In this document: positions 34,070 through 63,312 of the stretch, one piece after another
Numbering within the stretch: position 1 is the first letter of the stretch
Layout: every line of letters begins with the position of its first letter
Sequence record: OQ708376.1
DNA from: Escherichia phage vB_EcoM_CRJP21
Direction: 5' to 3' (one strand)
DNA: 64,000 bases
Position numbers and translations under genes: made by a program
The notes under the pieces: model-generated
Database searches by the model: none
What the model was told of the DNA's origin: nothing
The model's input: only the letters and a program-made list of their open reading frames with translations

Positions 34070-34229
<160 letters not shown>

Positions 34230-34244
34230 CAATGCGAGGTATAA

Positions 34245-34502
<258 letters not shown>

Positions 34503-34510
34503 GAATTTAA

Positions 34511-34912: not shown

Positions 34913-34921
34913 CGGGTATTA

Positions 34922-35471
<550 letters not shown>

Positions 35472-35531
35472 TACAACCGACAATGACGAAAGAACAGTTA
35501 TCAACATTTATCAACGCAGCATTAGATAAAA

Positions 35532-35563
<32 letters not shown>

Positions 35564-35615
35564 TACCAAGCAGCTTGAAGAACTTTGTAGTGCTGCACCT
35601 ATGCCGACTCTTGGC

Positions 35616-35716
<101 letters not shown>

Positions 35717-35728
35717 TATCTTACTTCT

Positions 35729-35818
<90 letters not shown>

Positions 35819-44151: not shown

Positions 44152-44192
44152 TATTATAATTAACACACCAAGTAACCCAAGGGGGATGGAAA

Positions 44193-44651: not shown

Positions 44652-44652
44652 T

Positions 44653-45075: not shown

Positions 45076-45497
45076 GAGGCTATAATAAGATTTGTATTTT
45101 TGTATTTTTAGTTTGTGCATTCAATTCGTTTGGTTACTACTGTACAGAAAATAATATTTCATATGGTTTAAATCCTTTGTGGTTTACAATTTCCAATGTA
45201 GCACAAATTGGTATTGCTCTTATGTCTGCACTTATGTTCTGTCCAATTGTCACTATGGATACTGATCATGAAAGGCTTGGATTTCTCCGTGATACTGGAG
45301 ACGAACCTTACAGTAGATTGATTGTGTTGTATCCATTTATTGTTATTTTAGGTACTAACATCCAACTTGGGTCATTATCTAATAGTGTTACATCAGCAGC
45401 TATTGCTATATTTGCATTCACATTTTTTATGGTACACAAATCAGTACTTAATTGGTATATCACAAAAATGGCAGAAGAAGGTACTAAAAATACTTGA
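45072..45497 (+). CDS. Multi-pass membrane protein (141 aa)
   Basis: Several hydrophobic helices (ICIFVFLVCAF, IGIALMSALMFCPIV, LIVLYPFIVILG, AAIAIFAFTFFMV). Confidence 0.55.
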   Translation: MRGYNKICIFVFLVCAFNSFGYYCTENNISYGLNPLWFTISNVAQIGIALMSALMFCPIVTMDTDHERLGFLRDTGDEPYSRLIVLYPFIVILGTNIQLGSLSNSVTSAAIAIFAFTFFMVHKSVLNWYITKMAEEGTKNT

Positions 45498-50510: not shown

Positions 50511-50789
50511 ATGTCTTTTTCTAAAGAAGAACGTGACCTTATTAAAAAAGCAATCTGGTTTTATGCTAATGAAGGGAAGTGCGATGAAGAAAAAGCACGT
50601 GAACTGTGTAATATCTTTGAGAAGAAACAAGATCTAAAAGTGTATCGTATCCGTGATTTGGATGAAGGGGATCGTATTGTCCTAGCTGAAACAAAAGAAG
50701 AAGCAGAACAAATCTTCACTGATAAAAACGAAAATCCACATTGGATGGAAGAAGTCTGTGATGTTAAAAAAGGTACTTATATCGATTGA
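50511..50789 (+). CDS. Hypothetical acidic protein (92 aa)
   Basis: Track 50496..50789; start moved to ATG 50511 behind TAGGAAA. Confidence 0.5.
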   Translation: MSFSKEERDLIKKAIWFYANEGKCDEEKARELCNIFEKKQDLKVYRIRDLDEGDRIVLAETKEEAEQIFTDKNENPHWMEEVCDVKKGTYID

Positions 50790-50814
50790 CAGTACTGAAT
50801 AATAGCAGTATTAT
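50786..50814 (+). promoter_or_regulatory. Sigma-70-type promoter
   Basis: TTGACA-GTACTGAATAATAGCAG-TATTAT. Confidence 0.5.
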
Positions 50815-50908: not shown

Positions 50909-51217
50909 ATGTTTCAAACTAACACTCAAGGTTTTGTAATCATCGATTTGAATCAAAACAGCGGTCATTGGATGAAACCTACTGACGCATGTATGCAGTT
51001 TGATTTCTTAGGTTACAAAATTAGTGTAAGTACTGGTGCTTCTGTACTGAGAGGTGGTTGTATCGTTGAACATCTGGTAACTGATCCAGAAGGTCGTGAG
51101 TATGAAATCGCAGGTTCAGTACAAGATGCCATTATGTTTGTATGTCAGCGTGAAATGAATGGTTCGAATTCAAATGCACTGACTCATGCTCTTTCTCAAG
51201 AAGTGGAGGTTCGTTAA
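50909..51217 (+). CDS. Hypothetical protein (102 aa)
   Basis: ORF with RBS ATGAGGAA. Confidence 0.55.
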   Translation: MFQTNTQGFVIIDLNQNSGHWMKPTDACMQFDFLGYKISVSTGASVLRGGCIVEHLVTDPEGREYEIAGSVQDAIMFVCQREMNGSNSNALTHALSQEVEVR

Positions 51218-51462
51218 TGAAATACATTGTAGCAGTACTCGTCGCATTTCTACTCACTGCATGTGATGCTTCTACCAAAGAACGTACAAGTGATTTTGTT
51301 CTACCTGCTGAATTAAAAGAAGCAGGGTGTAAGATTTATCGTATGCAACAAGATGGTGCTGGTGCGACTTTATACACTGTGTACTGTCCTAATGCAAATA
51401 CAAGTACTGGATACACTAGCGGTAAAACACGAATCAACACTTCCGTAATTCATGGAGAATAA
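51217..51462 (+). CDS. Putative lipoprotein (81 aa)
   Basis: Signal peptide with lipobox MKYIVAVLVAFLLTAC. Confidence 0.55.
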   Translation: MKYIVAVLVAFLLTACDASTKERTSDFVLPAELKEAGCKIYRMQQDGAGATLYTVYCPNANTSTGYTSGKTRINTSVIHGE

Positions 51463-51464
51463 CA

Positions 51465-51833
51465 ATGAGCCTTGATACAACACGTGCAGCAGATTTATTA
51501 ACTCGTCTGAATGATGAAGAATATCTTGCTGAGATAAAGTACAAGCTTGACAAACTTGTTCGAAGTGCTGAAGTAATTGAAGTTGAAGGTCACTTACCGA
51601 TGGATCAATACCATAGGTTCAAGGAAGATATGGTTTATTATCCTAATGAAATTTGGATTGAGTGGCAACATTGGACTAACAAAACTCTTCGCATTGAAGG
51701 GTATTGTGTGAAGTATGAAAGTTCACCTGGTGATGTTACAAAAACTCTATCAATTTGGTGTACAAAAACAAATGAACTCGTTGAGGTGAATTTGAATTAT
51801 ATGAATGGATTCCGTTGGGGTGATGTTAAATGA
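51465..51833 (+). CDS. Hypothetical protein (122 aa)
   Basis: ORF 2 nt after the upstream stop. Confidence 0.5.
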   Translation: MSLDTTRAADLLTRLNDEEYLAEIKYKLDKLVRSAEVIEVEGHLPMDQYHRFKEDMVYYPNEIWIEWQHWTNKTLRIEGYCVKYESSPGDVTKTLSIWCTKTNELVEVNLNYMNGFRWGDVK

Positions 51834-52105
51834 TTAAAAAACTCTTGACTGGAATCATTGTGTGCAGTACAATGTTTCTTACAGCATGTAATGATGACGG
51901 CAGGTTTAGTGCAAAAGACTTAGTTCGTCAGGATTGTACATTCACAGGTAAGTCTTTTATTAACGAGTATGAAATATGTACACAATCAGGTCGTATCTGT
52001 GGTGGTTGGGAAAAACGTCAGGAGCGATTGTATGTATATGAATGCCCTGGACATCACAACAAAGTACTAAGCACACACAAACTTGTTTATGATAAGGTTG
52101 AATAA
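51830..52105 (+). CDS. Putative lipoprotein (91 aa)
   Basis: Signal peptide with lipobox MIKKLLTGIIVCSTMFLTAC; several Cys residues. Confidence 0.55.
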   Translation: MIKKLLTGIIVCSTMFLTACNDDGRFSAKDLVRQDCTFTGKSFINEYEICTQSGRICGGWEKRQERLYVYECPGHHNKVLSTHKLVYDKVE

Positions 52106-52320
52106 TGACTACCAATGAAATGATGCAGGTTATTTGGGATAAAGGTTGTGATATTAAAATCACTAGTACTGATGTTCGTGTATTCAAAACTGAATATATG
52201 GAGTACTTGGACCTTGATACTTATAATAATATTGTATCAATTGAACACAAAGGTGCAGTACTGGAAACCATTGACGTAGTACTCAAGAAAGCTACCGACC
52301 TATTAGGAGTGGCAGTGTGA
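52105..52320 (+). CDS. Hypothetical protein (71 aa)
   Basis: ORF with start overlapping the upstream stop (TAATG). Confidence 0.5.
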   Translation: MTTNEMMQVIWDKGCDIKITSTDVRVFKTEYMEYLDLDTYNNIVSIEHKGAVLETIDVVLKKATDLLGVAV

Positions 52321-52463
52321 ATAACAAAGAGTGGGAAGATTACCGCAAGAAGTGCAGGGAGTTTGATAAAGAACTTACTGGTACAGTGAATGCAGTAATG
52401 TGGGTATCTGTAATTATTGCAGTTCTTGCGTTGGGTGCTATTATTATTAATAAATTATTCTAA
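52317..52463 (+). CDS. Small membrane protein (48 aa), GTG start
   Basis: RBS TAGGAG 7 nt upstream of GTG; C-terminal TM helix VMWVSVIIAVLALGAIII; not in the ORF track. Confidence 0.3.
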   Translation: MNNKEWEDYRKKCREFDKELTGTVNAVMWVSVIIAVLALGAIIINKLF

Positions 52464-52473
52464 GGCGAATATC

Positions 52474-52674
52474 ATGTTTACTTTATATCTCGCAGTAGTT
52501 CTCACCAATGGTGAAATCACTCGTACTATTGGTGAAGGTGTATATAAAACACCAGACCAGTGCTACTCTGCCACTCATTGGCCTCGCGATAGTGGGGATG
52601 AAACTCGCACTGAATTCAAATGCATGAAAGTAAAAGGTGATTTTGTTAACCTTAAGGTTATCGAGGCGAAATAA
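52474..52674 (+). CDS. Small protein with hydrophobic N-terminus (66 aa)
   Basis: Track 52417..52674; start moved to ATG 52474 behind TAAGGCGAA. Confidence 0.45.
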   Translation: MFTLYLAVVLTNGEITRTIGEGVYKTPDQCYSATHWPRDSGDETRTEFKCMKVKGDFVNLKVIEAK

Positions 52675-53192
52675 TGGATATTAATGAGTTGTTGAAATTA
52701 GTGTTTAATCGTGAACGCCGCGATACAAGACCAATTGAATATCAAGATGTGATACGCATTGAAACTGATTTCTGTTATGGTAAAACAACTCATGACCTTT
52801 TGAATCTCTCTGGAAAACGCTATGCTGATGTTTGTTTTTCAGAGAGAAGTGATGGTTCAGAAATAACGAGTACTGATATTGTTTGTTACGCACGCAGTGC
52901 TGATAAATCTTATGAAATAGAACTTATATATTCCCCTAGTTCTAAAACAAATCATCACCGCCATATTTTATATGATGTTTACACACCACCTGGTATTGCT
53001 GAATATTTTGTTATTGATTATAGTACTGAAGAAAATGTGTTTCAACAAAGTTTGATTCATAACTTTGAGGTGAATGATCCATTAGTACCAAAGTTGTTCA
53101 AACTACTTGACACCATCGATGTTGATTTTGAATTTGTTATGTGCATTAGAACTTCTTTATTCAATGAATTCATGGAACTTTTTAATATATGA
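52674..53192 (+). CDS. FFQxS-motif paralog family member
   Basis: Motif instance TEENVFQQSLIHNFEVNDPL. Confidence 0.55.
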   Translation: MDINELLKLVFNRERRDTRPIEYQDVIRIETDFCYGKTTHDLLNLSGKRYADVCFSERSDGSEITSTDIVCYARSADKSYEIELIYSPSSKTNHHRHILYDVYTPPGIAEYFVIDYSTEENVFQQSLIHNFEVNDPLVPKLFKLLDTIDVDFEFVMCIRTSLFNEFMELFNI

Positions 53193-53410
53193 ATAGATAC
53201 TATGTTGTGTATGAACACGTCTCTGAATTTAATAACATACGCGGGTTTTCCAGAGTAGTCACCAAGATGGATGTATTCATTCGTGCTCTTAGTGAAGTAG
53301 ATGCACTGTTTAAATTGTTTGATGAAATTACAAAGTATAACACACCTAAAACACACCGCTATGTGGAAACTGTACATAGCATTATGCTAACTGAAAGTGA
53401 TGAGGAATGA
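53189..53410 (+). CDS. Hypothetical protein (73 aa)
   Basis: ORF overlapping the upstream stop. Confidence 0.45.
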   Translation: MNRYYVVYEHVSEFNNIRGFSRVVTKMDVFIRALSEVDALFKLFDEITKYNTPKTHRYVETVHSIMLTESDEE

Positions 53411-53413
53411 TAA

Positions 53414-53632
53414 ATGAATTTATATCTAGTTGAAGGTTTAGTACAAGTCTATAAACCAGAAGGTGAAGGTCAACGTTTTTCACACGTAGAAGAATTTAAG
53501 TACGTTGTACAGGCTGATGGTCAGTACGATGCGGAAATTCAAGTAGATGAATCATTCCGTAAGAAAAATGAAATTGGTAAATTTCAATACCAGAACTTAC
53601 AATATAAAGTATGGCCTAGTATAAATGACTAA
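53414..53632 (+). CDS. Hypothetical protein (72 aa)
   Basis: ORF 3 nt after the upstream stop. Confidence 0.45.
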   Translation: MNLYLVEGLVQVYKPEGEGQRFSHVEEFKYVVQADGQYDAEIQVDESFRKKNEIGKFQYQNLQYKVWPSIND

Positions 53633-53840
53633 GATGTGGTGGTGTCATGGTGTATATAACGTGTATGTAAATGGTAGATATAAAATGTCTAGTACCTATG
53701 CAAGACGTGTTAATGCGAACAACCAAGTTGATGCTGCTTGTGAGATCATTGAGTGGTATGCTGAGTTCAATGCACCTGACTATATGTACGAAATAGTTAC
53801 AATAAATGTTGTACAAATCGATACATCTTTGATACAATAA
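53625..53840 (+). CDS. Hypothetical protein (71 aa)
   Basis: ORF overlapping the upstream gene by 8 nt. Confidence 0.45.
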   Translation: MTKMWWCHGVYNVYVNGRYKMSSTYARRVNANNQVDAACEIIEWYAEFNAPDYMYEIVTINVVQIDTSLIQ

Positions 53841-53872
53841 CCACATCAAAAAAATTGCATCTGAGGATACTT

Positions 53873-54535
53873 ATGTTAGTTAATCTTAATTTCATCACTT
53901 CACCTGACTGGGCATTACGTGGAGTTTCTTTAAACTTCAAGGAAACTATGTTTGACTACATTGGTGAGTGTACATTGGTAAATGCAACTTTTGATCCAAA
54001 TCATCCGTTTTGGGCTGAAATTCATGATCCAAATGTAAACAACAATACATCTGTTATGACTATTGTCCAGACTAAACATGCAGGTATCCTTGCAGGTTAT
54101 CGACCTGCACATGCAATTGAACACTTCACTGATTACGATGTCGTGGATGAATACCCAATGATCCATGAAGATGGAAGTCTATACACATCTGAAGACTTCC
54201 GTGCTATCTTTAATAGTACTGATGATATTCTACCAAGTGGACGTCCACGTCCTGAGTCTTATCTTATGCATCCATCTTATGGTGTAGCAGATACGCTTGA
54301 ACAGATTATGAATAAGTACAAGAACCTAATTGAAGGTCCAGAAGAAATTGTCCTGTGCTATCACCCAGTACTGAAGTCTGAACAACCAAAGGATGGTGGA
54401 TGGCGTTGGCATAAGAATGGTGAGTATATCGGTACTAAACGAAGTAAAGAACGTTTTGAGTACTTGTATGATGAGCCAGATGTTGATGTGGTTTTGTGTT
54501 ATAATTTTATTAAGGTGAAAAAGAAATGTATCTAG
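53873..54535 (+). CDS. Hypothetical protein (about 220 aa)
   Basis: Track 53855..54535 begins at TTG; start moved to ATG 53873 behind TGAGGATA. Confidence 0.5.
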   Translation: MLVNLNFITSPDWALRGVSLNFKETMFDYIGECTLVNATFDPNHPFWAEIHDPNVNNNTSVMTIVQTKHAGILAGYRPAHAIEHFTDYDVVDEYPMIHEDGSLYTSEDFRAIFNSTDDILPSGRPRPESYLMHPSYGVADTLEQIMNKYKNLIEGPEEIVLCYHPVLKSEQPKDGGWRWHKNGEYIGTKRSKERFEYLYDEPDVDVVLCYNFIKVKKKCI

Positions 54536-54768
54536 TACTAAGTTTTGTTGTTGCACTATTGTTTATGTTCTATCCTACACTAGTGGCATTAGCCACTAGA
54601 CGAACGATGGTAGATCTCACTACTGTATTCTTGCTAAACGTGGCATTAGTACTGGTGTCTATTATCATTCCAGTGAGCTTTACAGTTATTGATATTATTT
54701 CGGTATTACTCTTCGTGTTAAGTTATCTTATGCTTATTGAAGAAACAAATGTTGACAAACGTTCGTAG
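54526..54768 (+). CDS. Small membrane protein (80 aa)
   Basis: Two TM helices (LVLSFVVALLFMFYPTLVALA, LLNVALVLVSIIIPVSFTVIDIISVLLFVL). Confidence 0.5.
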   Translation: MYLVLSFVVALLFMFYPTLVALATRRTMVDLTTVFLLNVALVLVSIIIPVSFTVIDIISVLLFVLSYLMLIEETNVDKRS

Positions 54769-54779
54769 TACTGTATAAT
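54752..54779 (+). promoter_or_regulatory. Sigma-70-type early promoter with GTACTG spacer motif
   Basis: TTGACA-AACGTTCGTAGTACTG-TATAAT-GGTT. Confidence 0.6.
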
Positions 54780-54825
54780 GGTTCCTGTAGTCTGAAACTT
54801 AACACTTAAACTTGAGGTAAAAAAT

Positions 54826-55152
54826 ATGCTATCAGTACTAATTTCAATTCCGTCTTTAATTCTGATTTGGCTTCTGGTTTACGAATGCTTTATTACTGAT
54901 GATAATGATAAAAAAGAGTTCTCTGAGTTGTTTATGCTTGATTCACCGATTGTGCGTATTTTCTATACAGTAGTTGTGGTTTCAGTAATTGTATGGGTTT
55001 TGAGTTTTATCTTCCCACTCGGTGCAGTAGTTAAAACTTTGGATTTAGTTGAGAACTTTGTTGCAATTATGTGGCTAATCAAAGCACTATTTGCAGGAAA
55101 TGTTAAAATTTGGATTGATATTATCAAATTCAAGTTCACGAATAAGATGTAA
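54826..55152 (+). CDS. Membrane protein (108 aa)
   Basis: Multiple hydrophobic helices (VLISIPSLILIWLLV, FYTVVVVSVIVWVLSFIF). Confidence 0.5.
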   Translation: MLSVLISIPSLILIWLLVYECFITDDNDKKEFSELFMLDSPIVRIFYTVVVVSVIVWVLSFIFPLGAVVKTLDLVENFVAIMWLIKALFAGNVKIWIDIIKFKFTNKM

Positions 55153-55230
55153 CAGTGAAAATATCTCTATAGTATTAAATACTTCTGTACATATATATAG
55201 TACAGAAGTATTTCTCGTTAGAGGTTTGTT

Positions 55231-55590
55231 ATGAAGAGTTATATAAAATTAATAGCACTTGTGTGTGCATTATTTTCATGTTTTAGTTATGGTGCAGCAG
55301 CAGAAACATATTGTCGTAGTACTAAGGGAACGTGGCATGTATTGACTAACGACCCTAGAAATGGTAAAAATATAGTTGTTGATGGTGTGATTTATCGTTT
55401 TAAAGTAGAAAGTATTATCGGTAATAAAAAAATCTCGACTTATAGAGATGATTCTGGTACATTAGCAAACGTAATATTAATTGTAGACCCAAGAACTGGT
55501 AATGGTGATATCTATATAGTAATTTACTTGGACTCATCGGTACGCCGTGACCTAGATATAGATAAATTGAACTTACACTGTGAAATATAG
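55231..55590 (+). CDS. Secreted protein (119 aa)
   Basis: Signal peptide MKSYIKLIALVCALFSCFSYGAAAE. Confidence 0.55.
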   Translation: MKSYIKLIALVCALFSCFSYGAAAETYCRSTKGTWHVLTNDPRNGKNIVVDGVIYRFKVESIIGNKKISTYRDDSGTLANVILIVDPRTGNGDIYIVIYLDSSVRRDLDIDKLNLHCEI

Positions 55591-55601
55591 GACTTAAAAA
55601 A

Positions 55602-55979
55602 ATGGTAAACACTATTTTACTTTTGTTGTTGAATATTCCAATTATTCTGTCTTTTTTAATTTCTATTTTTATGGCAGGATATTGTTTAGTTGCAGTAATT
55701 CATTTCATTTTAACAAACAAATATGTCCTAATTTCTAAGCTTGATTCTATTTTTGCTTGCGATTCGATTGCTTATAACTTGTGGTTAATTTGTTCTTGCA
55801 TTATGGGAGTAACTTTCCTTCTGTATGTATTTGATGTCCTTGACCAAAAGTTCGTATACATCAGTACTGGATTGGCTCTTTATCCTGCTACGTGGTACTT
55901 GATTTACGTTGGTGATATATGGTATAGTACTTATAAAGAATATCAGTACAAGAAATCACTTAACGTTGGAGGAAAATAA
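55602..55979 (+). CDS. Membrane protein (125 aa)
   Basis: Hydrophobic helices (ILLLLLNIPIILSFLISIFMAGYCLVAVI, LWLICSCIMGVTFLLYVF). Confidence 0.5.
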   Translation: MVNTILLLLLNIPIILSFLISIFMAGYCLVAVIHFILTNKYVLISKLDSIFACDSIAYNLWLICSCIMGVTFLLYVFDVLDQKFVYISTGLALYPATWYLIYVGDIWYSTYKEYQYKKSLNVGGK

Positions 55980-55981
55980 TC

Positions 55982-56332
55982 ATGAAAATTATTTTATTTT
56001 TTGTATGTATGTTAATGTGTGGATTGTCATATGCTGAACCATTGGAAGGTTTAGTTTGTACAGATGGTAATATTAAACATATCTATCAAGGTGATAGTGA
56101 CGATCGAGATATTGTATATATTGATGGACAATCATATACGTTTGTTAAAGAGCATACAGTAGGCGACATTAGCTTCACTGAGTTTTCTAACGACACAGAC
56201 CCTAACTTCTTAGCGTTTATTGAAGTAGATGTATATGAAGATAGTAATGGCACACAATATGCTAAATTAGTTATGATGCGTCGTGGTGCTAAAGAAACTA
56301 GTTTTGGTGGCTTGTGTAAATATAAGGATTGA
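55982..56332 (+). CDS. Secreted protein (116 aa)
   Basis: Signal peptide MKIILFFVCMLMCGLSYA. Confidence 0.55.
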   Translation: MKIILFFVCMLMCGLSYAEPLEGLVCTDGNIKHIYQGDSDDRDIVYIDGQSYTFVKEHTVGDISFTEFSNDTDPNFLAFIEVDVYEDSNGTQYAKLVMMRRGAKETSFGGLCKYKD

Positions 56333-56336
56333 TATT

Positions 56337-56528
56337 ATGTTGATTTATCAAAGTGATAATATTCGTGTTATGCAGCATCCCTACTTACAAATCTTTGATG
56401 TGCAGCAGTATATGGAAGGTGATGACCCAAGAACCTATGGTCGTAAGTATGATTACTTCACTGTAAAGCAGTGTAAAAATATTAACGAAGTACGACAATT
56501 AGTTCAAGAACTTCAAAACAAAGGTTGA
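56337..56528 (+). CDS. Hypothetical protein (63 aa)
   Basis: Track 56283..56528; start moved to ATG 56337 behind TAAGGATTGA. Confidence 0.45.
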   Translation: MLIYQSDNIRVMQHPYLQIFDVQQYMEGDDPRTYGRKYDYFTVKQCKNINEVRQLVQELQNKG

Positions 56529-56554
56529 CTTCGGTCAGCCTTTTTTGTTATAAT
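56523..56554 (+). terminator. UUCG-tetraloop terminator that also carries a -35 box (composite terminator-promoter module)
   Basis: GGTTGAC-TTCG-GTCAGCC then TTTTTT; embedded TTGACT followed 18 bp later by TATAAT. Confidence 0.7.
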
Positions 56555-56582
56555 TCTCTTAATAAATTAGAGGATTTTAATT

Positions 56583-57023
56583 ATGTATGTATATCGTTTT
56601 GAACTTAAATTCAGTTACATTGAACCTAACTTAGAACCTGCACGAACTGTAGGTCCGTTTGCACGGTATTCAACCAGATACAGTACTAAAAATGGATTTG
56701 ACCGTTTGCTTATGACTACACCTTCTCAATTCCAACCTGAACCAACTGAGGATGGGATCTATTCAATCAAAAGTGGATGGGTATTTGGCTGTCAAAGTTT
56801 GAAAGATTTGTTCAGATTCTTCACTATGGACTTGGGTAAATTGCATCGTGCTGGGTTTGCTATATCTGTATATGAAGTTCCAGACCACCATGTAGACATT
56901 GGTCGTAATCAGGTTCAGTACTATTGCGGTAGTGCTAAATTAGTTCGTATCATGTCAGTTAAGGAAGCAAAGGATGAGTTCCGACAAAGTAAAAGAGAAA
57001 CACATGAGGTAATATATGGATAA
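56583..57023 (+). CDS. Hypothetical protein (146 aa)
   Basis: ORF with RBS AGAGGATT. Confidence 0.55.
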   Translation: MYVYRFELKFSYIEPNLEPARTVGPFARYSTRYSTKNGFDRLLMTTPSQFQPEPTEDGIYSIKSGWVFGCQSLKDLFRFFTMDLGKLHRAGFAISVYEVPDHHVDIGRNQVQYYCGSAKLVRIMSVKEAKDEFRQSKRETHEVIYG

Positions 57024-57360
57024 AACTCAAATAGAATTAAAGAAATTTGTTTCATTCTATCTTCCTGATGACCCACGTAATTCACAAAAAGATATTGAAT
57101 ATTATAATATCCTATCTAAACAGTTAATGAGAAAGTTTCAACAGTGTTTAACTATATTCAATACAGATGGAAGACGTAGATACCGAATCGTTTCAATGAA
57201 TGATGAAAACGCAAATTTCTTTGATTACGATGTAGTTTTTAGAGCATATAATGATGATCGTATAAAATTAAATTATGATCAAATTATACTTGACCTGAAT
57301 GTTATATGTGTTATAATCACTCACGTAGCCGAACTTAATGGTTTTAAAGAATGGTATTGA
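57016..57360 (+). CDS. Hypothetical protein (114 aa)
   Basis: ORF overlapping the upstream stop. Confidence 0.5.
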   Translation: MDKTQIELKKFVSFYLPDDPRNSQKDIEYYNILSKQLMRKFQQCLTIFNTDGRRRYRIVSMNDENANFFDYDVVFRAYNDDRIKLNYDQIILDLNVICVIITHVAELNGFKEWY

Positions 57361-57374
57361 ATAGAGGATAACAT

Positions 57375-57641
57375 ATGAAGCTTAAATTACAATATAATGG
57401 ATTTACTTTACGTAATGATACTGAATTTATTAATCGTTCTCCTGGTGCTGAACTGTTTTTACGAGAGATGAACATTCCTTTCATCATTACTACAGTGGGC
57501 GACCGTGAAGTTCTACAATATGCAGAGCATCCGATTATTGATGTTCCTTGGTACTCTGAGCATATGTACATGGATATGGCACGTCGCTACAACTGTAAGT
57601 TCGTAGTTGAAGGTGATAAAATTACAGTCGAATTTAAATAA
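57375..57641 (+). CDS. Hypothetical protein (88 aa)
   Basis: ORF with RBS AGAGGATAA. Confidence 0.5.
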   Translation: MKLKLQYNGFTLRNDTEFINRSPGAELFLREMNIPFIITTVGDREVLQYAEHPIIDVPWYSEHMYMDMARRYNCKFVVEGDKITVEFK

Positions 57642-57653
57642 GGTAAATTAAAA

Positions 57654-57947
57654 ATGATCAGTACTTCAGTTAATGAAAGCATCGTCGCTGACGTAGAAAT
57701 GGTTAAAGAATGTGCAGATGAAACTCTTCGTGATATGTACATTAATGATTTAATTACTGAATACGGTAGTCGTGGTGTACACGAATTTATTCGTTTAAGT
57801 GGAGAGTTGATGAAAAATCGAATTCGTATGAAGCTTAACGTACATCCAAAAGCATGGGCATTTACATTAAAATACGCAGAAGATATTGTTAATTTGCGTC
57901 GAACTGAAGTATATGAACGTTTGCACAATGGTATGTTAGATAAATGA
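57654..57947 (+). CDS. Hypothetical protein (97 aa)
   Basis: ORF with RBS AAGGTAAA. Confidence 0.5.
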   Translation: MISTSVNESIVADVEMVKECADETLRDMYINDLITEYGSRGVHEFIRLSGELMKNRIRMKLNVHPKAWAFTLKYAEDIVNLRRTEVYERLHNGMLDK

Positions 57948-57999
57948 TTGTAAAATAGGAATTCTTAAATGAATTCCTTTTTGTTTATAAGGTATAGTA

Positions 58000-58221
58000 A
58001 TGAAATATATAGTACTTGTACTGATATTATTCAGTACTGTTGTAAGTGCTAAACAAAAAGAATATGTTAAATGTATAAATTATGAAGAGAAATATGTTGA
58101 AACATATAAAAAAAGTATAATTAAAAACGTTTCGATTACTAACAGAGCAACAATCATTGTACTTAAAAATGGGTTAATTATGCTATATAAACCACACGTT
58201 AAATGTGAAATTATTAATTGA
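58000..58221 (+). CDS. Small secreted protein (73 aa)
   Basis: Signal peptide MKYIVLVLILFSTVVSA. Confidence 0.5.
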   Translation: MKYIVLVLILFSTVVSAKQKEYVKCINYEEKYVETYKKSIIKNVSITNRATIIVLKNGLIMLYKPHVKCEIIN

Positions 58222-58228
58222 GGAAATT

Positions 58229-58801
58229 ATGAATCGTAAAGGTCGTTTTAAAGTATCAAAAAAGAACAAAAGTTCTAGGTTTAAACCTATTGTTTTAACA
58301 GTTAAATCTAACAAAGATTTAACTGCACTTAGTAAAAAGATAATTTCATCTAAGATTGAAGTATCATACGTAAATTCATTAAAATATATGAATGTCAAAC
58401 CACTGGACCAACTCATTTCACTTATATTTGAACGTAATGATTTTGAGATATCAGTAGATGATTATAGAGCCTATAATGCTGGTTTCATTAATGTTACTTG
58501 TAATAAAAAACTAACTGAGTTGGAAAATTTGTCATGTATAATAAATCTAGATAAAGGTGTTGTGAAGTACCATTTTGTACATTTCACTAATATCAATAAT
58601 GGAATGGGTGTACAATCCAGACCTATAGTGCCTACGTGTGATGTTACTAAATTAGCAAAGCTCAATGATGAAGAATATTTTCAAGAAAGCATTGTAACTG
58701 AGCATTTAGATGATATAATAGCTACTTACAAAGAATGCATATGGGTGTTGAATGCTATAAAACCTAAATTGTGTTTAATGAATATTGTTCGTGATTTATG
58801 A
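58229..58801 (+). CDS. FFQxS-motif paralog family member (divergent)
   Basis: Motif instance NDEEYFQESIVTEHLDDI; start moved to ATG 58229 behind TGAGGAAA. Confidence 0.5.
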   Translation: MNRKGRFKVSKKNKSSRFKPIVLTVKSNKDLTALSKKIISSKIEVSYVNSLKYMNVKPLDQLISLIFERNDFEISVDDYRAYNAGFINVTCNKKLTELENLSCIINLDKGVVKYHFVHFTNINNGMGVQSRPIVPTCDVTKLAKLNDEEYFQESIVTEHLDDIIATYKECIWVLNAIKPKLCLMNIVRDL

Positions 58802-58814
58802 ATGGGGAATCGTA

Positions 58815-59258
58815 ATGAGTTGGGTAAATGTTAATAGTATTGAACTTAACGAACAAGATATTTTTGCATTTGTAAATTTAACTAATAACACAGTACTAAA
58901 AGGGCGTTTGTTCAGTGCTAGTGATGGGTACAAATGGATCTCTTTGATGGATGATAGTGGTGTGATTTATAATGTAATGCAATTACCCCAATGGGTATAT
59001 AGTAACACTGCTGACGATGTTCTTACCGCAGTTATGCGTGAGTTTGAAAAACTCCCAGGTGGTGATATCAAAAACAAAGTTTTTAATGCAGAACGTAAAA
59101 ATTATACAGCACAGCAATTGGAATCCCTTGCCATTGCTGCTTATCAAGCTGCTATTAAGAAGCCAGAGTGCGTTATTCTTAAGTATGTACCAGACTTAAA
59201 ACTTACGTTGGAAGACATGGATGCATTCATTTTTACATCTGAACTTGAACAGTACTAA
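58815..59258 (+). CDS. Hypothetical protein (147 aa)
   Basis: Track 58785..59258; start moved to ATG 58815 behind GGGGAA. Confidence 0.5.
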   Translation: MSWVNVNSIELNEQDIFAFVNLTNNTVLKGRLFSASDGYKWISLMDDSGVIYNVMQLPQWVYSNTADDVLTAVMREFEKLPGGDIKNKVFNAERKNYTAQQLESLAIAAYQAAIKKPECVILKYVPDLKLTLEDMDAFIFTSELEQY

Positions 59259-59266
59259 TTTAACTT

Positions 59267-59337
59267 TGGGACAACCATTCTTATTATGATATAATGTTTT
59301 ATGTCATTCGATATAAATGACAACGGAACTATAAATA
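59267..59337 (+). promoter_or_regulatory. Tandem early (sigma-70-type) and T4-type late (TATAAATA) promoters
   Basis: TGGGAC, 17 bp spacer, TGATATAATGTTTT; then exact TATAAATA at 59330..59337, about 37 nt before the ATG at 59374. Confidence 0.5.
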
Positions 59338-59373
59338 TTATAGTAAAATTTATCTCTTATAGGAGTTATAAAA

Positions 59374-59757
59374 ATGGTTGATAAATGGAATAAGAAAGAT
59401 CCATCACATGATGTTGATATTTCTGGTCTAGACAATGCACATAAGCACAAGTATCTAGATTCACTAGGTCTTCTAAAACCAGACCAAAGTCTTGCACATG
59501 ATCGTCCATCCCGTGAAAAAGCATTTAGCCTAGAATCACTAGGTCATGAGCTTAATCGTGTGTTTGAGGATCACCCAATCTATGTACGTGATATTATCGA
59601 GAAACTTAAAGTAACTCCTAAAGAGCACTTTAAAGCAACTGTACACTCTGCATTCCGTGCATTGCATGATTCTCTAAAGAAAACTCACAATCTTCGTAAA
59701 ATTCATGATGAAATCGTGAATGCAATCGAAAGTGAAAAACATAAGTTCAAGAAGTAA
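59374..59757 (+). CDS. Hypothetical protein (127 aa) with SLGLL module; probable late gene
   Basis: KHKYLDSLGLLKPDQ resembles KLRYVNSLGLLNATQ in the 60028 gene; TATAAATA box upstream. Confidence 0.55.
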   Translation: MVDKWNKKDPSHDVDISGLDNAHKHKYLDSLGLLKPDQSLAHDRPSREKAFSLESLGHELNRVFEDHPIYVRDIIEKLKVTPKEHFKATVHSAFRALHDSLKKTHNLRKIHDEIVNAIESEKHKFKK

Positions 59758-59762
59758 TAAAA

Positions 59763-59796
59763 AGGGGTTGACTAAGGTCAGCCCTTTGTTGTATCA
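59763..59796 (+). terminator. Terminator hairpin with embedded -35 (composite module)
   Basis: GGGGTTGAC-TAAG-GTCAGCCC then TTTGTTGT; embedded TTGACT followed 18 bp later by TATCAT. Confidence 0.6.
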
Positions 59797-59826
59797 TAAC
59801 TTCTCAATATAACTGAGGTATCATAT

Positions 59827-59940
59827 ATGCAAGGTTTGAAATTTGTAGTTGCTGCACTCATCGCCGCAGTTCTGGTTGGTGGTGTATTCTATGTAGTGGA
59901 TCAAAAAGTAAATCCACCTGCACAAGAACAATCTAAGTAA
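59827..59940 (+). CDS. Small membrane peptide (37 aa)
   Basis: RBS TGAGGTA then ATG; MQGLKFVVAALIAAVLVGGVFYVV; flanked by terminators; not in the ORF track. Confidence 0.4.
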   Translation: MQGLKFVVAALIAAVLVGGVFYVVDQKVNPPAQEQSK

Positions 59941-59948
59941 CAAAATAA

Positions 59949-59986
59949 GGTTGACTTCGGTCAGCCTTTTCTTTATACTATAAATA
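59949..59986 (+). terminator. UUCG-tetraloop terminator fused to an early promoter and a T4-type late promoter box
   Basis: GGTTGAC-TTCG-GTCAGCC then TTTTCTTT; embedded TTGACT, 17 bp spacer, TATACT; exact TATAAATA at 59979..59986. Confidence 0.65.
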
Positions 59987-60027
59987 TAGTCATAGAGAAA
60001 AAAATGAAATCTATGGAGAGAAATCAA

Positions 60028-61515
60028 ATGCCAAGTAATTTTACTGATAAAAATGGTGGTAACATGGCTGGTCACTCTGATAAATGGAGTGAACGCAACC
60101 GCCGTCCAAATAGTTATCAAGCAGGTCAAGGTTCACGTGGGTCACGTAACCAAGGAACTGGTCTAGCTGGTAAAGCAAACGCAGAAGCAGGTGAAGTTAA
60201 GAGTACTGAGAACATGACTGAGCTAGAAAAGCTACGTTATGTTAACTCATTAGGTCTTCTTAACGCAACACAAAAACAACGCCTTGCTGATATGGAACGT
60301 GCTGAGAAAGAACAAGCAGTTCCTAAAGAAGAACCAAAAGCAGAAGTACCTAAAGCTGCTAACCCTGTTAAAGAGTTATCAGATAACTTAGGTAAGATCT
60401 TTGCTAACAAACCACAGTTGATTCAGGGTATTGTCAAAGCACTACAGGCAGTTCCTAAAGAAGAACTCAAAGGTAAAGCACAAGCTGTACTTGATGTAAT
60501 GAAAGGTAATAAGAGCACTGAACCAACTGAAGTATTCAGTACTATCATGCGTGCACTTGAAGGTACACACAAAGAAGATTCCAAAGAACCTGAACAGGGT
60601 GAAGCAAGTCTTGATGGTATTCTTAAAACTTTTGATAATATTGGTAAAGCAGACCGTGCTAATGCCCAGCAAGTCAAGAATGTACTGGCTAAACTTGAAA
60701 ACCGTTTAGAAGGTAAAGACAATAAGGTTAAGCTCGTATCAGATGCAGTTAACAGTGCACTTAAATCTTATGTACAAGGTGAGAAAAGTCGCTTCGTAAC
60801 AGCTATGGATGCTGCATTCAACACTATGAAAAAGTATGAAGCAGAACATGGTGAGAAGGTAACACCAGATGGTTATCTAAAGCGTGCAGATGAAGAGGGT
60901 GCAGTTGAACAGAAAGATGTTGAGCCTGAGCAAGAAGAAATACCTGATACCGTTGATATGGATGGATACATTCATCGTCCTGAGATGGAAGAGTTTGGGT
61001 CAGATAAAGAAGGTTTTGAACATGCAATGGCAGTATATAAAGCATTAGTTAAAAATCCAGATTATGCTAACCGTTTTGTTGACGAGTTTGATAGTGCATG
61101 GAATAACTACAAAGAGAAAGGTTATGACTTCCCTGCTGAAGCTGCATTCTTTGAACTTGGTAAACTATTAGCTAAACATGGAATTGACGTTGGTTCATCT
61201 GATTCCGAAGGTATGGAAGAAGAACATCTTGAAATGACCGATAAATCAATTCATGAACTTCAAAAGCTAATGATGTGGATATCCGAGATTGGCAAAAAAG
61301 CAGGTGCTGATCGTAAAAGTATCAACAAAAACATTAGTTGGATTAAAGATAATGTTGGTAACAATGCTCGTAAACTTCAAAAGGCGTGGGCTGATTTAGT
61401 AAATGGTGCAGATGATGTTGACATTGAATCACCAGAAGCATATGAGTATGCACTAACTACACTTGATAACTCATTCAAAGAGTACGACAGTGGTGTTGGA
61501 AAGGATAAAAAATAA
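60028..61515 (+). CDS. Large charged hypothetical protein (about 495 aa) with SLGLL module; probable late gene
   Basis: Track 60004..61515; start moved to ATG 60028 behind GGAGAGAAA; Lys/Glu-rich; visibly higher GC than its neighbours; TATAAATA late box about 42 nt upstream. Confidence 0.6.
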   Translation: MPSNFTDKNGGNMAGHSDKWSERNRRPNSYQAGQGSRGSRNQGTGLAGKANAEAGEVKSTENMTELEKLRYVNSLGLLNATQKQRLADMERAEKEQAVPKEEPKAEVPKAANPVKELSDNLGKIFANKPQLIQGIVKALQAVPKEELKGKAQAVLDVMKGNKSTEPTEVFSTIMRALEGTHKEDSKEPEQGEASLDGILKTFDNIGKADRANAQQVKNVLAKLENRLEGKDNKVKLVSDAVNSALKSYVQGEKSRFVTAMDAAFNTMKKYEAEHGEKVTPDGYLKRADEEGAVEQKDVEPEQEEIPDTVDMDGYIHRPEMEEFGSDKEGFEHAMAVYKALVKNPDYANRFVDEFDSAWNNYKEKGYDFPAEAAFFELGKLLAKHGIDVGSSDSEGMEEEHLEMTDKSIHELQKLMMWISEIGKKAGADRKSINKNISWIKDNVGNNARKLQKAWADLVNGADDVDIESPEAYEYALTTLDNSFKEYDSGVGKDKK

Positions 61516-61525
61516 ACATTTAAAA

Positions 61526-61550
61526 GGTTGACTTCGGTCAACCTTTTTTT
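61526..61550 (+). terminator. UUCG-tetraloop terminator
   Basis: GGTTGAC-TTCG-GTCAACC followed by TTTTTTT. Confidence 0.75.
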
Positions 61551-61586
61551 GTAAATATAAAAGAGGAATTAAGAAGAGGGATTACA

Positions 61587-61838
61587 ATGAAAAAATATAT
61601 TATATTTGGAATTGTATTATTTTCCAGTACTAGTTATGGTGCAGATTATCATTGCTCCGTAGCAAGACAGGATTTCAGAAATGGGGATTTCTATACCACT
61701 TCATACACAAAAGGAATAATACACGACATCGACACAACTATTGGATTTAATGCATTTGATAACAAAGATTCATATACTTCAGGTATACTATCTGAGCGTA
61801 AGACTGATGTAATGGGAATAGAAAAAGAGTTCCGGTGA
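61587..61838 (+). CDS. Small secreted protein (83 aa)
   Basis: Signal peptide MKKYIIFGIVLFSSTSYGA. Confidence 0.5.
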   Translation: MKKYIIFGIVLFSSTSYGADYHCSVARQDFRNGDFYTTSYTKGIIHDIDTTIGFNAFDNKDSYTSGILSERKTDVMGIEKEFR

Positions 61839-61848
61839 TTCAGTAGCA

Positions 61849-62172
61849 ATGTGCAATGACATTGAAAGTACTAAAACAATTTATTATAATAATGAACGTA
61901 ATTATCGTTTTCATAATTTAACCACAAATAAAAGTTTACTATTTTACAATTGTAAAGAAGTAAAACTCCCACCCGACAATAGCTGTAACCCGACGAACCC
62001 ATCACCAGCACAATGTAATACTCAATCTGAACCTGATAACAATAAAAAAGACAAAGATAAAGATAAAAAAGAAGACAAAAAACCTTTAAAAGATAAAAAG
62101 AAAGATAAAAAACCTAATCCGTTTAAAAATAATAAACCAGCACAACCCGATATGACGTGTAAAATAAAATAA
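61849..62172 (+). CDS. Cys- and Lys-rich low-complexity protein (107 aa)
   Basis: KDKDKDKKEDKKPLKDKKKDKKPNP repeat tract; several Cys residues. Confidence 0.4.
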   Translation: MCNDIESTKTIYYNNERNYRFHNLTTNKSLLFYNCKEVKLPPDNSCNPTNPSPAQCNTQSEPDNNKKDKDKDKKEDKKPLKDKKKDKKPNPFKNNKPAQPDMTCKIK

Positions 62173-62181
62173 GGATATATA

Positions 62182-62601
62182 ATGAAAAAGATTTTTTTAA
62201 GTATTATTTTAGTACTTTTTAGTTTTAATGTATATGCAGCAGATGCTAAACAGGTTGCAAATACAGTAAAAGATGTTATAGTAGATAATGCTCCTACATT
62301 AGAGGAAATTGGGGTAAAAACTTGTGATATAGTAATATATAATTTAGTTAATGATGAACGAGTTATGTTGAATACGTATGAACAAGTAGTCCCATTGGTT
62401 GAATCTGGTGATGCTTTTAGCTTTACATATAAAGTTAAATTAACAGGAGGGGTTGAAGTTAATCTTGACATTGATACCGCTTCAGTACTAAAAGATAAAC
62501 TAGGATATGTGTTCAATCGTATTCGTGAAGAAGGTCATCTTAAGTATGTTTATGAAAGTAAAATACTAAAACGTGCAATAGTTATAGAAAACTGTAAATG
62601 A
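62182..62601 (+). CDS. Secreted protein (139 aa)
   Basis: Signal peptide MKKIFLSIILVLFSFNVYAADA; RBS TAAGGATA. Confidence 0.55.
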   Translation: MKKIFLSIILVLFSFNVYAADAKQVANTVKDVIVDNAPTLEEIGVKTCDIVIYNLVNDERVMLNTYEQVVPLVESGDAFSFTYKVKLTGGVEVNLDIDTASVLKDKLGYVFNRIREEGHLKYVYESKILKRAIVIENCK

Positions 62602-62609
62602 TAATAAAA

Positions 62610-62642
62610 GGGTTGACTTCGGTCAGCCTTTTTTGTTATGAT
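62610..62642 (+). terminator. UUCG-tetraloop terminator with embedded -35 (composite module)
   Basis: GGGTTGAC-TTCG-GTCAGCC then TTTTTT; embedded TTGACT followed 18 bp later by TATGAT. Confidence 0.7.
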
Positions 62643-62670
62643 GTTGATATTAACTACAGAGGATAAAGTA

Positions 62671-63312
62671 ATGACTAAGCAAGAAATATTCAAAACTTTA
62701 ATTGACATTTTGCGTCCATCAAAAACTCGTTGTGCGATGGAGTTTGATATTCCTTATGCTGAACGCGTAATCTTTCCACAAGTTAAAGCTGCTGGACTTA
62801 CTTTGCTTGGAATGGGGATGTACTCTGTAGTAGTTGAACATAAAAACTATCCTGGACGAGCATTTAAAGTAACCACTTCACGCTGGGATGGTTTTCGTGC
62901 TTATGCAAAGTACTGCATTGAAAACGCAGGAACCAAGTTTCTTCCAGTGATCTACAGTGCCAACGAACAAGGAAACTTTGGATGGTATGAGATGGACAAG
63001 TACTATCCTATAATTAAACAAAAAAATAATTATGATGACTTTGTTAGTACTAAAATTGGAGATTTGTATTCGTATGCACATGCTGGTCAGTACGCAACTT
63101 CAGTGAATGATATGCGTGGAAATTCTGAAGAGATTGCTATTGCAACGGTCGCTGCTAACATCATGAAAGAGTTTCACGGGCGTTTTGTACCAGACATTCA
63201 TTCAAGTAATGTGATGATGGATAAAGATGGGAATGTATTCATTACTGATCCTCTTTCGTGTGATGTGCGTAGAGAAATACCAATTACTGAAGAAGATCCA
63301 GTTTTTTATTGA
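62671..63312 (+). CDS. Putative atypical protein-kinase-like protein
   Basis: AFKV (VAIK-like lysine), DIHSSNVMMD (HxDxxxxN-like catalytic loop) and FITDP (DFG-like); track start 62638 lies in the terminator U-tract, so ATG 62671 behind AGAGGATAA was used. Confidence 0.45.
   Translation: MTKQEIFKTLIDILRPSKTRCAMEFDIPYAERVIFPQVKAAGLTLLGMGMYSVVVEHKNYPGRAFKVTTSRWDGFRAYAKYCIENAGTKFLPVIYSANEQGNFGWYEMDKYYPIIKQKNNYDDFVSTKIGDLYSYAHAGQYATSVNDMRGNSEEIAIATVAANIMKEFHGRFVPDIHSSNVMMDKDGNVFITDPLSCDVRREIPITEEDPVFY

Follow-up and report, generated by a model that had tools for sequence, protein, structure and literature searches.

We tentatively propose that, in the Asteriusvirus jumbo phage vB_EcoM_CRJP21 (OQ708376.1), a stretch of about 11 kb (positions 51217-62601) is a hyperplastic accessory region that is transcribed early and carries about half of the Sec-exported proteins of the genome. 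A conserved core operon within it may shield the envelope of an infected cell much as T4 Imm and Spackle do, and the other exported proteins would be add-on cassettes. The window, meaning the whole stretch of DNA that was analysed, comprised 64,000 nucleotides. The source phage was identified as a RaK2-like Asteriusvirus jumbo phage of E. coli (350 kb; 99% to PBECO4/121Q), and it is not T4-like in the strict sense, as the earlier description had implied.

Envelope targeting and clustering of exported proteins

Twelve ORFs of the region had been singled out as encoding small envelope-targeted proteins, and all were present on the + strand, at the coordinates given and with the features described (Table 1). 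Signal peptides, lipoboxes and transmembrane (TM) segments were called with home-made heuristic predictors rather than SignalP or DeepTMHMM. These recovered two lipobox proteins (51217, 51830), five proteins with a signal peptidase I-type signal peptide (55231, 55982, 58000, 61587, 62182), three polytopic membrane proteins (54526 and 54826, with three TM segments each, and 55602, with two to four) and two short single-TM peptides (52317, 59827). The long, signal-bearing starts were backed by Shine-Dalgarno motifs. The number of Cys residues was even and non-zero in 6 of 7 mature domains, against a background of 32% (p=0.005), and the targeting signals were kept in orthologs from fEgEco12, A4 and RaK2 at 24-90% identity. 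Envelope targeting of the small proteins is supported. Two individual assignments were rejected or revised: the LFSC "lipobox" of 55231 was not conserved among orthologs, and 61587 was without a lipobox despite the label "lytic conversion lipoprotein" on its fEgEco12 homolog.

Exported proteins were significantly clustered. Within the window they accounted for 8 of 30 proteins in the block and 2 of 116 outside it (scan-statistic p=0.0016). Genome-wide, as computed in a relative with 98.8% identity to the block, the corresponding counts were 7/30 and 8/510 (Fisher 3.8e-6; scan p=0.00035), such that the block held 47% of the exported proteins of the genome in 3% of its length. For proteins with TM segments only, the excess did not reach significance (p=0.44 within the window and 0.094 across the genome); the clustering proposed in the original prediction holds for the exported proteins and not for the TM-only ones.

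None of the exported proteins was detected in the virion proteome of phAPEC6, and they are, on strong grounds, non-structural and directed at the host envelope. The virion proteins 59374 and 60004 lie in the block and fall outside the envelope-targeted set. All genes in the region had dN/dS <1; dN and dN/dS of the exported and TM genes were above those of their neighbors, and dS was mosaic. The contrast in divergence and dN/dS was not significant against A4 because dS was saturated.

When 30 proteins were scanned against NCBIfam, Pfam and PHROG, all matches were either to families that are private to the clade and without assigned function or to the signal-peptide region alone, with no known-function family matching any protein of the region. 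Searches of the literature brought up no functional studies of these genes. In the public annotations, the starts of 55231 and 55982 are truncated in RefSeq/PHROG, which clips their signal peptides, and three of these genes are omitted from phAPEC6; the genes are therefore hidden from automated searches.

Table 1. Features of the region, with positions in the window
Feature	Position	Strand	Remarks
First-unit promoter, sigma70-type 11/12	50786..50814	+	heads 50909-54768; fEgEco12 12/12, A4 11/12, same position
Lipoprotein 1, 81 aa	51217..51462	+	predicted lipobox LTA|C with Asp at +2; two more Cys; phrog_902
Lipoprotein 2, 91 aa	51830..52105	+	predicted lipobox LTA|C with Asn at +2; four more Cys; clade-private family
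48-aa peptide, charged N-terminal half, C-terminal TM anchor	52317..52463	+	phrog_38271
220-aa cytoplasmic protein	53873..54535	+	stop overlaps start of 54526; conserved to RaK2
80-aa three-TM inner-membrane protein	54526..54768	+	order and class conserved to RaK2
Core-operon promoter, perfect sigma70 TTGACA-16-TATAAT	54752..54779	+	fEgEco12 12/12, A4 12/12, RaK2 11/12
TMa, 108 aa, three TM	54826..55152	+	opens core operon
SPa, 119-aa secreted protein	55231..55590	+	paralog of SPb; two invariant Cys; RBS backs long start
TMb, 125-aa polytopic membrane protein	55602..55979	+	no detectable relation to TMa
SPb, 116-aa secreted protein	55982..56332	+	mature part modelled as 8-stranded beta-barrel, Cys in first and last strands
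PeSL-like composite: terminator hairpin and sigma70 promoter	56520..56554	+	-35 inside stem
73-aa secreted protein	58000..58221	+	two Cys in mature part; fast-diverging, 49% identity to fEgEco12
Virion protein	59374..59757	+	phrog_16530; ortholog phAPEC6 gp037c seen by mass spectrometry
Mini-unit: PeSL-like hairpin-promoter, 37-aa single-TM gene (59827-59940), second PeSL-like hairpin-promoter	59766..59979	+	
Virion protein, paralog of 59374	60004..61515	+	phAPEC6 gp035c seen by mass spectrometry
Variable cassette, PeSL-like hairpins at both ends	61522..62642	+	61587-61838, 61849-62172, 62182-62601

Transcription units, hairpin-promoters and cassette turnover

Strong sigma70 promoters were located upstream of genes, with 31 on the + strand and 2 on the - strand. 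The exported proteins lie behind conserved near-consensus promoters, as would be expected if they were made early and acted on the host envelope. Host sigma70 RNA polymerase would read the units soon after DNA entry, a timing suggested by promoter sequence, and the products would go to the inner membrane or the periplasm or be tethered to a membrane by a lipid anchor, as their targeting signals and disulfide pattern indicate.

The idea that the 11 kb form a single block did not stand up, as the region comprises approximately eight sigma70-driven units and includes about 17 cytoplasmic genes, the two virion proteins verified by mass spectrometry and variable cassettes. Several units are bounded by composite elements resembling the promoter-early stem-loop (PeSL; PMC4122927), found at 56523, 59766, 59949, 61526 and 62611, and the cassettes that they flank vary in A4 and fEgEco12. 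As in the PeSL cassettes of T4-type phages, terminator/sigma70-promoter elements flank ORFs that differ among close relatives (PMC4122927, PMC2839356); unlike them, the elements described here occur in a RaK2-like jumbo phage, carry the -35 box in the hairpin stem and belong to a variant that is nearly confined to the block (5 of 6 genome copies within 56.5-62.6 kb). The cassette at 61522..62642, which encodes a secreted protein of 83 aa (61587-61838), a Lys/Asp-rich protein with 5 Cys and no signal peptide (61849-62172) and a secreted protein of 139 aa with 2 Cys (62182-62601), was absent from A4 and RaK2 and had indels in PBECO4. Relatives both gain and lose cassettes: A4 lacks 61587-62601 and a kinase, and fEgEco12 has extra TM and TM-plus-secreted genes. 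Phyletic range was likewise uneven, with the core operon extending to RaK2 and the lipoprotein and other signal-peptide genes not doing so.

A shared function is not required, because many cytoplasmic genes, two virion genes and some eight transcription units are involved. Somewhat less probable, in our view, than the reading proposed above is that the proteins have no common function at all. PeSL-mediated recombination would then pile unrelated accessory cassettes into a hyperplastic dumping ground, and exported proteins would be abundant since they are tolerated there, each in a separate role (e.g. anti-defence, nutrient or ion functions, or interference with the host stress response). The number of units, the local concentration of the hairpin-promoter variant, the presence or absence of cassettes among relatives, the patchy dS, the differing phyletic ranges and the interspersed cytoplasmic and virion genes all agree with such an origin. 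Against it, the share of exported proteins found in so little of the genome is extreme for chance, and the core operon, promoter included, has stayed tightly together as one conserved unit. The dumping-ground account also overlaps in part with the reading that we prefer and does not exclude it. In our preferred reading, the lipoproteins and remaining secreted proteins would be lineage-specific cassettes with similar yet separate envelope roles, added to a functional core formed by 54826-56332 and the upstream gene 54526.

Lysis control and receptor masking as improbable roles

Lysis timing and receptor masking had been offered as roles for the envelope-targeted proteins. In the first case, the small polytopic proteins would serve as holins or antiholins, those of the periplasm as RI-like sensors or regulators and the lipoproteins as spanin components. 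The small size and charged C-termini of the TM proteins, the pairing of membrane and periplasmic proteins in one operon and the parallel of T4 RI, a small periplasmic regulator of the holin, speak for this reading. A role in lysis is nonetheless unlikely, because the spanins and lysozymes of this phage are more than 120 kb away: a canonical overlapping i-spanin/o-spanin pair lies about 195 kb from the block, and the distance to the three T4-lysozyme-like genes is 120-190 kb. Within the 64-kb window no lysozyme homolog was found, and none of the block proteins matched a holin or spanin PHROG. No i-spanin stands beside 51217 or 51830, whose flanking genes encode soluble proteins without the required TM segment, and the host-type promoters suggest early rather than late expression. 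We therefore regard control of lysis or of lysis inhibition as a poor prospect.

In receptor masking, 51217 and/or 51830 would bind the outer-membrane receptor of the phage from the periplasm and block adsorption of progeny and superinfecting phages. The precedent is the lytic-conversion lipoprotein Llp of phage T5 (PMC9586334). Like T5 Llp and T1/phi80 Cor, they are small phage lipoproteins, predicted here to be expressed early and to contain an intramolecular Cys pair; the LTA|C lipobox and small mature protein of 51217 and 51830 were conserved in orthologs, and an early promoter lies upstream of both genes. "Lytic conversion lipoprotein" labels occur in fEgEco12, and 51217 weakly matched the Cor PHROG (phrog_1119, E=0.008). 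That match covers residues 1-48, however, and falls mainly on the signal peptide, and neither lipoprotein matched Llp in sequence or fold. In E. coli, lipoproteins with Asp at position +2 are kept in the inner membrane by the Lol-avoidance rule. Hence 51217 (+2 Asp) is predicted to stay in the inner membrane, and 51830 (+2 Asn) is predicted to reside in the outer membrane.

Genomic context and distribution also argue against masking. No receptor-binding gene stands beside the lipoprotein genes here, in Felixounavirus or in Vequintavirinae, where the neighbors are small hypotheticals. The 51217 family occurs in at least 571 virulent phage genomes with diverse, unrelated receptors, and its host and phage range is far wider than that of Llp/Cor. 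Receptor masking of the Llp/Cor type is accordingly very improbable. A much stronger match of 51217 was to phrog_902 (1.5e-13), a large uncharacterised family; the AF2 model of 51217 (pLDDT 74) had no PDB neighbor, no Pfam family was found, and a PF16225 tag in precomputed tables could not be reproduced by hmmscan, even at E<=10. The lipobox of 51830 was kept in fEgEco12 and A4, and the gene is absent at the RaK2 locus.

The core operon as a candidate exclusion system

In the core operon (54826-56332), gene order and protein class were conserved at 24-46% identity, and the promoter was kept in four lineages including RaK2. The upstream gene 53873 belongs to a broad but unannotated family by homology search. 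By hhalign, SPa and SPb emerged as paralogs (probability 96.7%, E=4e-10), and the AF2 model of SPb was all-beta, with a low-confidence N-terminal helix, in keeping with the predicted signal peptide, followed by a confident barrel. Two broader groupings were rejected. A tandem-duplicated module of TM and secreted genes was not supported, as only the secreted genes are paralogous and TMa, TMb and 54526 showed no relation to one another (hhalign probability <1%). Nor was a single superfamily of secreted proteins supported, given that no link emerged between SPa/SPb and 58000, 61587 or 62182 (probability <10%); the extra secreted protein of fEgEco12 showed weak similarity (27.7%).

The core would consist of small polytopic inner-membrane proteins alternating with paralogous periplasmic 8-stranded beta-barrels. 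Protection of the envelope of the infected cell, as by T4 Imm and Spackle, would be its most likely role: in the periplasm the barrels may serve as binders or inhibitors, of the muramidase on incoming virions for instance, and the membrane proteins may interfere with DNA entry. T4 Spackle is an early periplasmic, disulfide-bonded inhibitor of the tail lysozyme (PMC7677548). Like Spackle and Imm, the proteins described here are small and non-structural and, by prediction, early and either periplasmic with a cleaved signal and disulfide or polytopic in the inner membrane; the T4 proteins work at the infected cell's envelope (PMC7677548), and those of the region are predicted to do likewise. SPa and SPb share the early sigma70 promoter, the signal peptide and an invariant Cys pair with Spackle by prediction. 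In contrast, Spackle is an alpha-helical bundle where the SPb model is all-beta, no sequence similarity to Spackle or Imm and no Spackle PHROG match were found, and the arrangement in the region is a single conserved operon of TM and secreted genes in which the secreted member is duplicated.

The barrel also invites comparison with lysozyme inhibitors of the MliC/PliC fold, whose eight-stranded antiparallel, periplasmic beta-barrel is present by prediction. Identity to PliC, MliC/YdhA, Brucella PhiA and Neisseria ACP was only 3-7%, and the MliC/PliC motifs were missing (SxSGAxY in 0/21 sequences, YxxxTKG in 2/21). No Pfam MliC match was found at E<=0.1, and Foldseek did not recover the PliC resemblance, its best match being a lipocalin-fold protein (E=0.02). 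Up-and-down barrels of 8 strands serve generically as binding scaffolds. In ACP, a disulfide joins the first strand to the last and inhibitor activity occurs although the MliC motifs are missing (PMC5507604), which sets a precedent. In further contrast to the MliC/PliC inhibitors, the genes here are phage-encoded, and any lysozyme targeted would probably be of the GH24 T4 type and not of the c type. A virion-associated lysozyme is known in Asteriusvirus (PMC7247149), and the genome encodes an 887-aa virion protein with a T4L-like domain, besides two other proteins with lysozyme domains, of 162 and 308 aa.

We infer an exclusion or inhibitor function for proteins of the region, and superinfection exclusion, which the original prediction had also named, appears to be the most plausible general role; the case for it draws on analogy and on one fold resemblance that fails across methods. 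A more specific and decidedly speculative proposal, which we consider unlikely, is that SPa and SPb represent a new family of periplasmic beta-barrel inhibitors of T4-type (GH24) muramidases. Such a family would have converged on PliC/MliC/ACP as an analogue of the helical Spackle, forming with the inner-membrane proteins a conserved early exclusion operon of RaK2-like phages. Separately, the 51217 family would be a widespread and hitherto unrecognised envelope-acting factor.

Jumbo phages of the PBECO4/121Q/RaK2 group are under development for therapy, and more than 80% of their genes lack a known function. The region marks the place where nearly half of the exported proteins of such a phage are encoded. 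Within it, a conserved early operon and a large family of lipoproteins stand out as candidates for superinfection exclusion, protection from lysis from without and muramidase inhibition. If true, inhibition of T4-type lysozymes by a PliC-like phage protein would be just the second mechanism of this kind to become known, after Spackle.

Exported proteins and their genomic setting

The 12 kb around the block (window 51217–62601, a cluster of predicted exported and membrane proteins) shares 99.2% identity with Escherichia phage PBECO4 and 98.6% with 121Q; both are Asteriusvirus jumbo myoviruses of 350 kb and kin of Klebsiella phage RaK2. The phage, which the original prediction had read by analogy with T4-like phages, is T4-like only loosely; this identity places it in Asteriusvirus. 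Small plus-strand genes, nearly all annotated as hypothetical, run in a long array through the entire 64 kb window. The sole convincing minus-strand gene amid this early-gene array, 41138–42292, carries the RefSeq annotation virion structural protein, and five paralogous ORFs of ∼55–60 aa are interleaved with seven tRNA genes (see table). Two more small groups of membrane or secreted proteins lie outside the block, at 12378–16719 and 43220–45497; 43220, for example, carries a good signal peptide, and three transmembrane (TM) proteins come after it.

Lipobox, signal-peptide (n/h/c regions and the −3,−1 rule) and TM (Kyte-Doolittle hydropathy) predictions were made with our own heuristics, applied to genes called across the entire window. 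All twelve ORFs named earlier from the sequence were present, and each fell again into its proposed class: lipobox proteins at 51217 (LTA|CD) and 51830 (LTA|CN), cleavable signal peptides at 55231, 55982, 58000, 61587 and 62182, polytopic membrane proteins at 54526, 54826 and 55602, and single-TM peptides at 52317 and 59827. The same signals were found in the fEgEco12, A4 and RaK2 orthologs despite divergence to 24–90% identity. Shine-Dalgarno motifs lie upstream of the long starts, with none before the internal starts given by RefSeq/PHROG to 55231 (window 55231–55590) and 55982 (window 55982–56332), which cut away the signal peptide. Two or four Cys were present in six of the seven mature domains, compared with even, non-zero counts in 32% of cytoplasmic proteins (p=0.005), and dN/dS was below 1 for every gene. 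Assignment of 55231 as a lipoprotein was ruled out because its LFSC motif is not conserved in orthologs; 61587, whose homolog in fEgEco12 bears the label lytic conversion lipoprotein, has no lipobox. Public annotations conceal block proteins through clipped starts (RefSeq/PHROG, PBECO4) and missing genes; in phAPEC6 both lipoprotein genes and the 55231 homolog are wholly unannotated.

Exported proteins (signal peptide plus lipoprotein) accounted for 8/30 genes in the block and 2/116 elsewhere in the window (scan-statistic permutation p=0.0016). TM proteins alone were not enriched there (p=0.44), and any envelope-targeted class gave 13/30 versus 18/116 (Fisher 0.00175, scan p=0.047). The genome-wide test used a complete relative, OR844650.1 (98.8% identity to the block; 540 genes called by a codon-usage model), and gave 7/30 versus 8/510 for exported proteins (Fisher 3.8e-6, scan p=0.00035), 5/30 versus 40/510 for TM only (p=0.094) and 12/30 versus 48/510 for any envelope-targeted protein (Fisher 2.2e-5, scan p=0.00025). 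This count of seven takes in 59827, really a TM peptide, and omits the uncalled 61587 ortholog; the curated count is still seven. Approximately 47% of the predicted exported proteins of OR844650.1 fall within 3% of its length. Two genes of the block, 59374 and 60004, encode true virion proteins: mass spectrometry of phAPEC6 virions had detected their orthologs, gp037c and gp035c, and picked up none of the block's exported or membrane proteins.

Features of the block, its surroundings and the relative OR844650.1
Feature	Location	Description
Seven tRNA genes and interleaved ORFs	window 32–36 kb (31679–33452, 32141–35808)	tRNA Gly, Ser x2, Arg, Met, Asn, Thr
RNA polymerase sigma factor gene	∼3 kb upstream of block
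Core gene 1	53873	cytoplasmic
Core gene 2	54526	TM
Core gene 3 (TMa)	54826	TM
Core gene 4 (SPa)	55231	signal peptide
Core gene 5 (TMb)	55602	TM
Core gene 6 (SPb)	55982	signal peptide
Composite hairpin-plus-promoter elements	56523, 59766, 59949, 61526, 62611	variant at 48060
Protein kinase gene	62638–63312	T7 gp0.7-like; just downstream of block
Candidate lysis gene	OR844650.1 200640–201566	308-aa T4-lysozyme-like protein, N-terminal TM, ∼9 kb from spanins
Candidate lysis genes	OR844650.1 210094–210773	i-spanin of 124 aa overlapping an o-spanin of 102 aa (Pro-rich lipoprotein)

Lipoproteins and the conserved core operon

The 51217 lipoprotein matched phrog_902 (E=1.5e-13), with relatives in 571 phage genomes by tblastn, including Vibrio phages, Felixounavirus, Vequintavirinae and Erwinia/Aeromonas jumbo phages; an exhaustive search gave 244 representative clusters. 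The lipobox is kept in 141 of 148 relatives and exactly two further Cys in 115 of 148. The conserved core reads YxLPxEL..CK[IV]Y...V.CPNxxTxT...GK; the +2 residue is variable (D 35, S 27, E 25, T 17). The 51830 family is private to the clade. Receptor masking by these lipoproteins is counted among the rival readings of the block.

The order and predicted class of the six core genes are kept in fEgEco12, A4 and RaK2 (24–46% identity to RaK2), and a perfect sigma70 promoter 5′ of 54826 is kept in position in four lineages (12/12, 12/12, 12/12 and 11/12 consensus positions). The first core gene (53873–54535) encodes a 220-aa protein with ∼400 homolog clusters from phages and metagenomes that share a C-terminal domain of ∼80 aa, with no Pfam family or annotation. 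Comparison by hhalign showed the secreted proteins SPa and SPb to be paralogs (probability 96.7%, E=4e-10) and detected no mutual relationship among the core TM proteins. The SPa/SPb family is confined to Asteriusvirus and Alcyoneusvirus (45 phage records; 20 clusters among 5.8 billion proteins) and has two invariant Cys, one at the mature-chain start and the other 2–5 residues before the C-terminus. Foldseek returned no significant match for the SPb model, a lipocalin-fold protein ranking first; neither MliC/PliC motifs nor a match to Pfam MliC was found. By the model, the mature protein can safely be described as a small calycin/PliC-like periplasmic barrel; muramidase inhibition is a hypothesis. 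A plausible candidate target lies in the virion-associated lysozyme carried by the genus (PMC7247149) and in the three T4-lysozyme-like domains encoded by OR844650.1, in proteins of 887, 162 and 308 aa (the last with an N-terminal TM).

Compared with fEgEco12, envelope proteins of the block had lower median amino-acid identity than cytoplasmic neighbours (67.5% versus 88.4%; p=0.009) and higher dN (0.20 versus 0.07; p=0.007–0.015) and dN/dS (0.25–0.30 versus 0.13; p=0.02–0.04); against A4 the envelope–cytoplasmic contrast was not significant. In the fEgEco12 comparison dS was saturated over 55231–55982 but just 0.05–0.5 in the flanks, a pattern that indicates allele replacement and not steady divergence.

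Promoters and cassette exchange

Strong sigma70 promoters (at least 11/12 consensus positions) in window 1–64000 numbered 31 on the plus (coding) strand and 2 on the minus strand, most of them 30–60 nt 5′ of start codons. By this density and placement the window looks like an early region read by host RNA polymerase. The original prediction of one block holds as a concentration of exported proteins but not as a single unit, since from promoters and hairpins we infer approximately eight transcription units.

A near-identical hairpin, GGTTGACTTCGGTCAGCC, whose stem contains a −35 box and which a −10 box follows, forms a composite hairpin-plus-promoter element, and five of only six copies in the 352 kb genome fall in this one 6 kb stretch. 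These five match the published definition of promoter-early stem-loops (PeSLs), terminator/promoter cassettes that mediate the shuffling of genes within the hyperplastic regions of T4-type phages (PMC4122927). Gene content among relatives is consistent with such a role. A4 is without the 61587–62601 cassette and the kinase gene, and the kinase gene is likewise absent at the syntenic locus of fEgEco12; fEgEco12 has, in the same region, an extra small polytopic membrane gene (9298–9534) and an extra pair encoding a polytopic membrane protein and a secreted two-Cys protein (11323–11879), all absent from the window. Just 3′ of the A4 SPb gene lies a 41-aa ORF (7401–7526) that matches the C-terminal end of SPb in its fEgEco12-type allele; it looks like a scar left when recombination replaced one allele with another. 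The kinase gene is flanked by a hairpin-promoter and, given its absence from fEgEco12 and A4, behaves as a mobile cassette.

Within the 61587–62601 cassette, 61587 (signal peptide, one Cys) is followed in another frame by the Lys/Asp-rich ORF 61849 (five Cys, no signal peptide; window 61587–62172). The frame offset is identical in fEgEco12, and in PBECO4 the A-rich tract contains single-base indels; speculatively, fusion of the two ORFs by frameshifting would yield an exported protein with six Cys. PBECO4 also carries a 2-nt insertion directly after the 62182 start codon (window 62182–62190) that leaves only a truncated annotated ORF; either the gene is a pseudogene there or the sequence is in error.

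Functional readings of the block

Control of lysis, whose timing the original prediction had listed among typical roles, is disfavoured: an overlapping i-/o-spanin pair of canonical form and every lysozyme gene are 120–195 kb distant, the window contains no lysozyme homolog, and no holin or spanin family match was obtained. Reading the block as a collection of unrelated accessory cassettes is partly correct for its right half, but leaves the conserved core operon and the strength of the enrichment unexplained.

The block is confirmed as the main place in the genome where exported proteins are concentrated, non-structural and behind host-type early promoters. The predicted envelope-acting set is a reasonable reading, and a putative role in exclusion or protection is our tentative best guess. 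As a set of early accessory envelope proteins encoded in a hyperplastic region of a phage, the block belongs to a known kind; the SPa/SPb operon, with its PliC-like products, and the 51217 lipoprotein family, which is widespread, are two concrete leads that can be tested.
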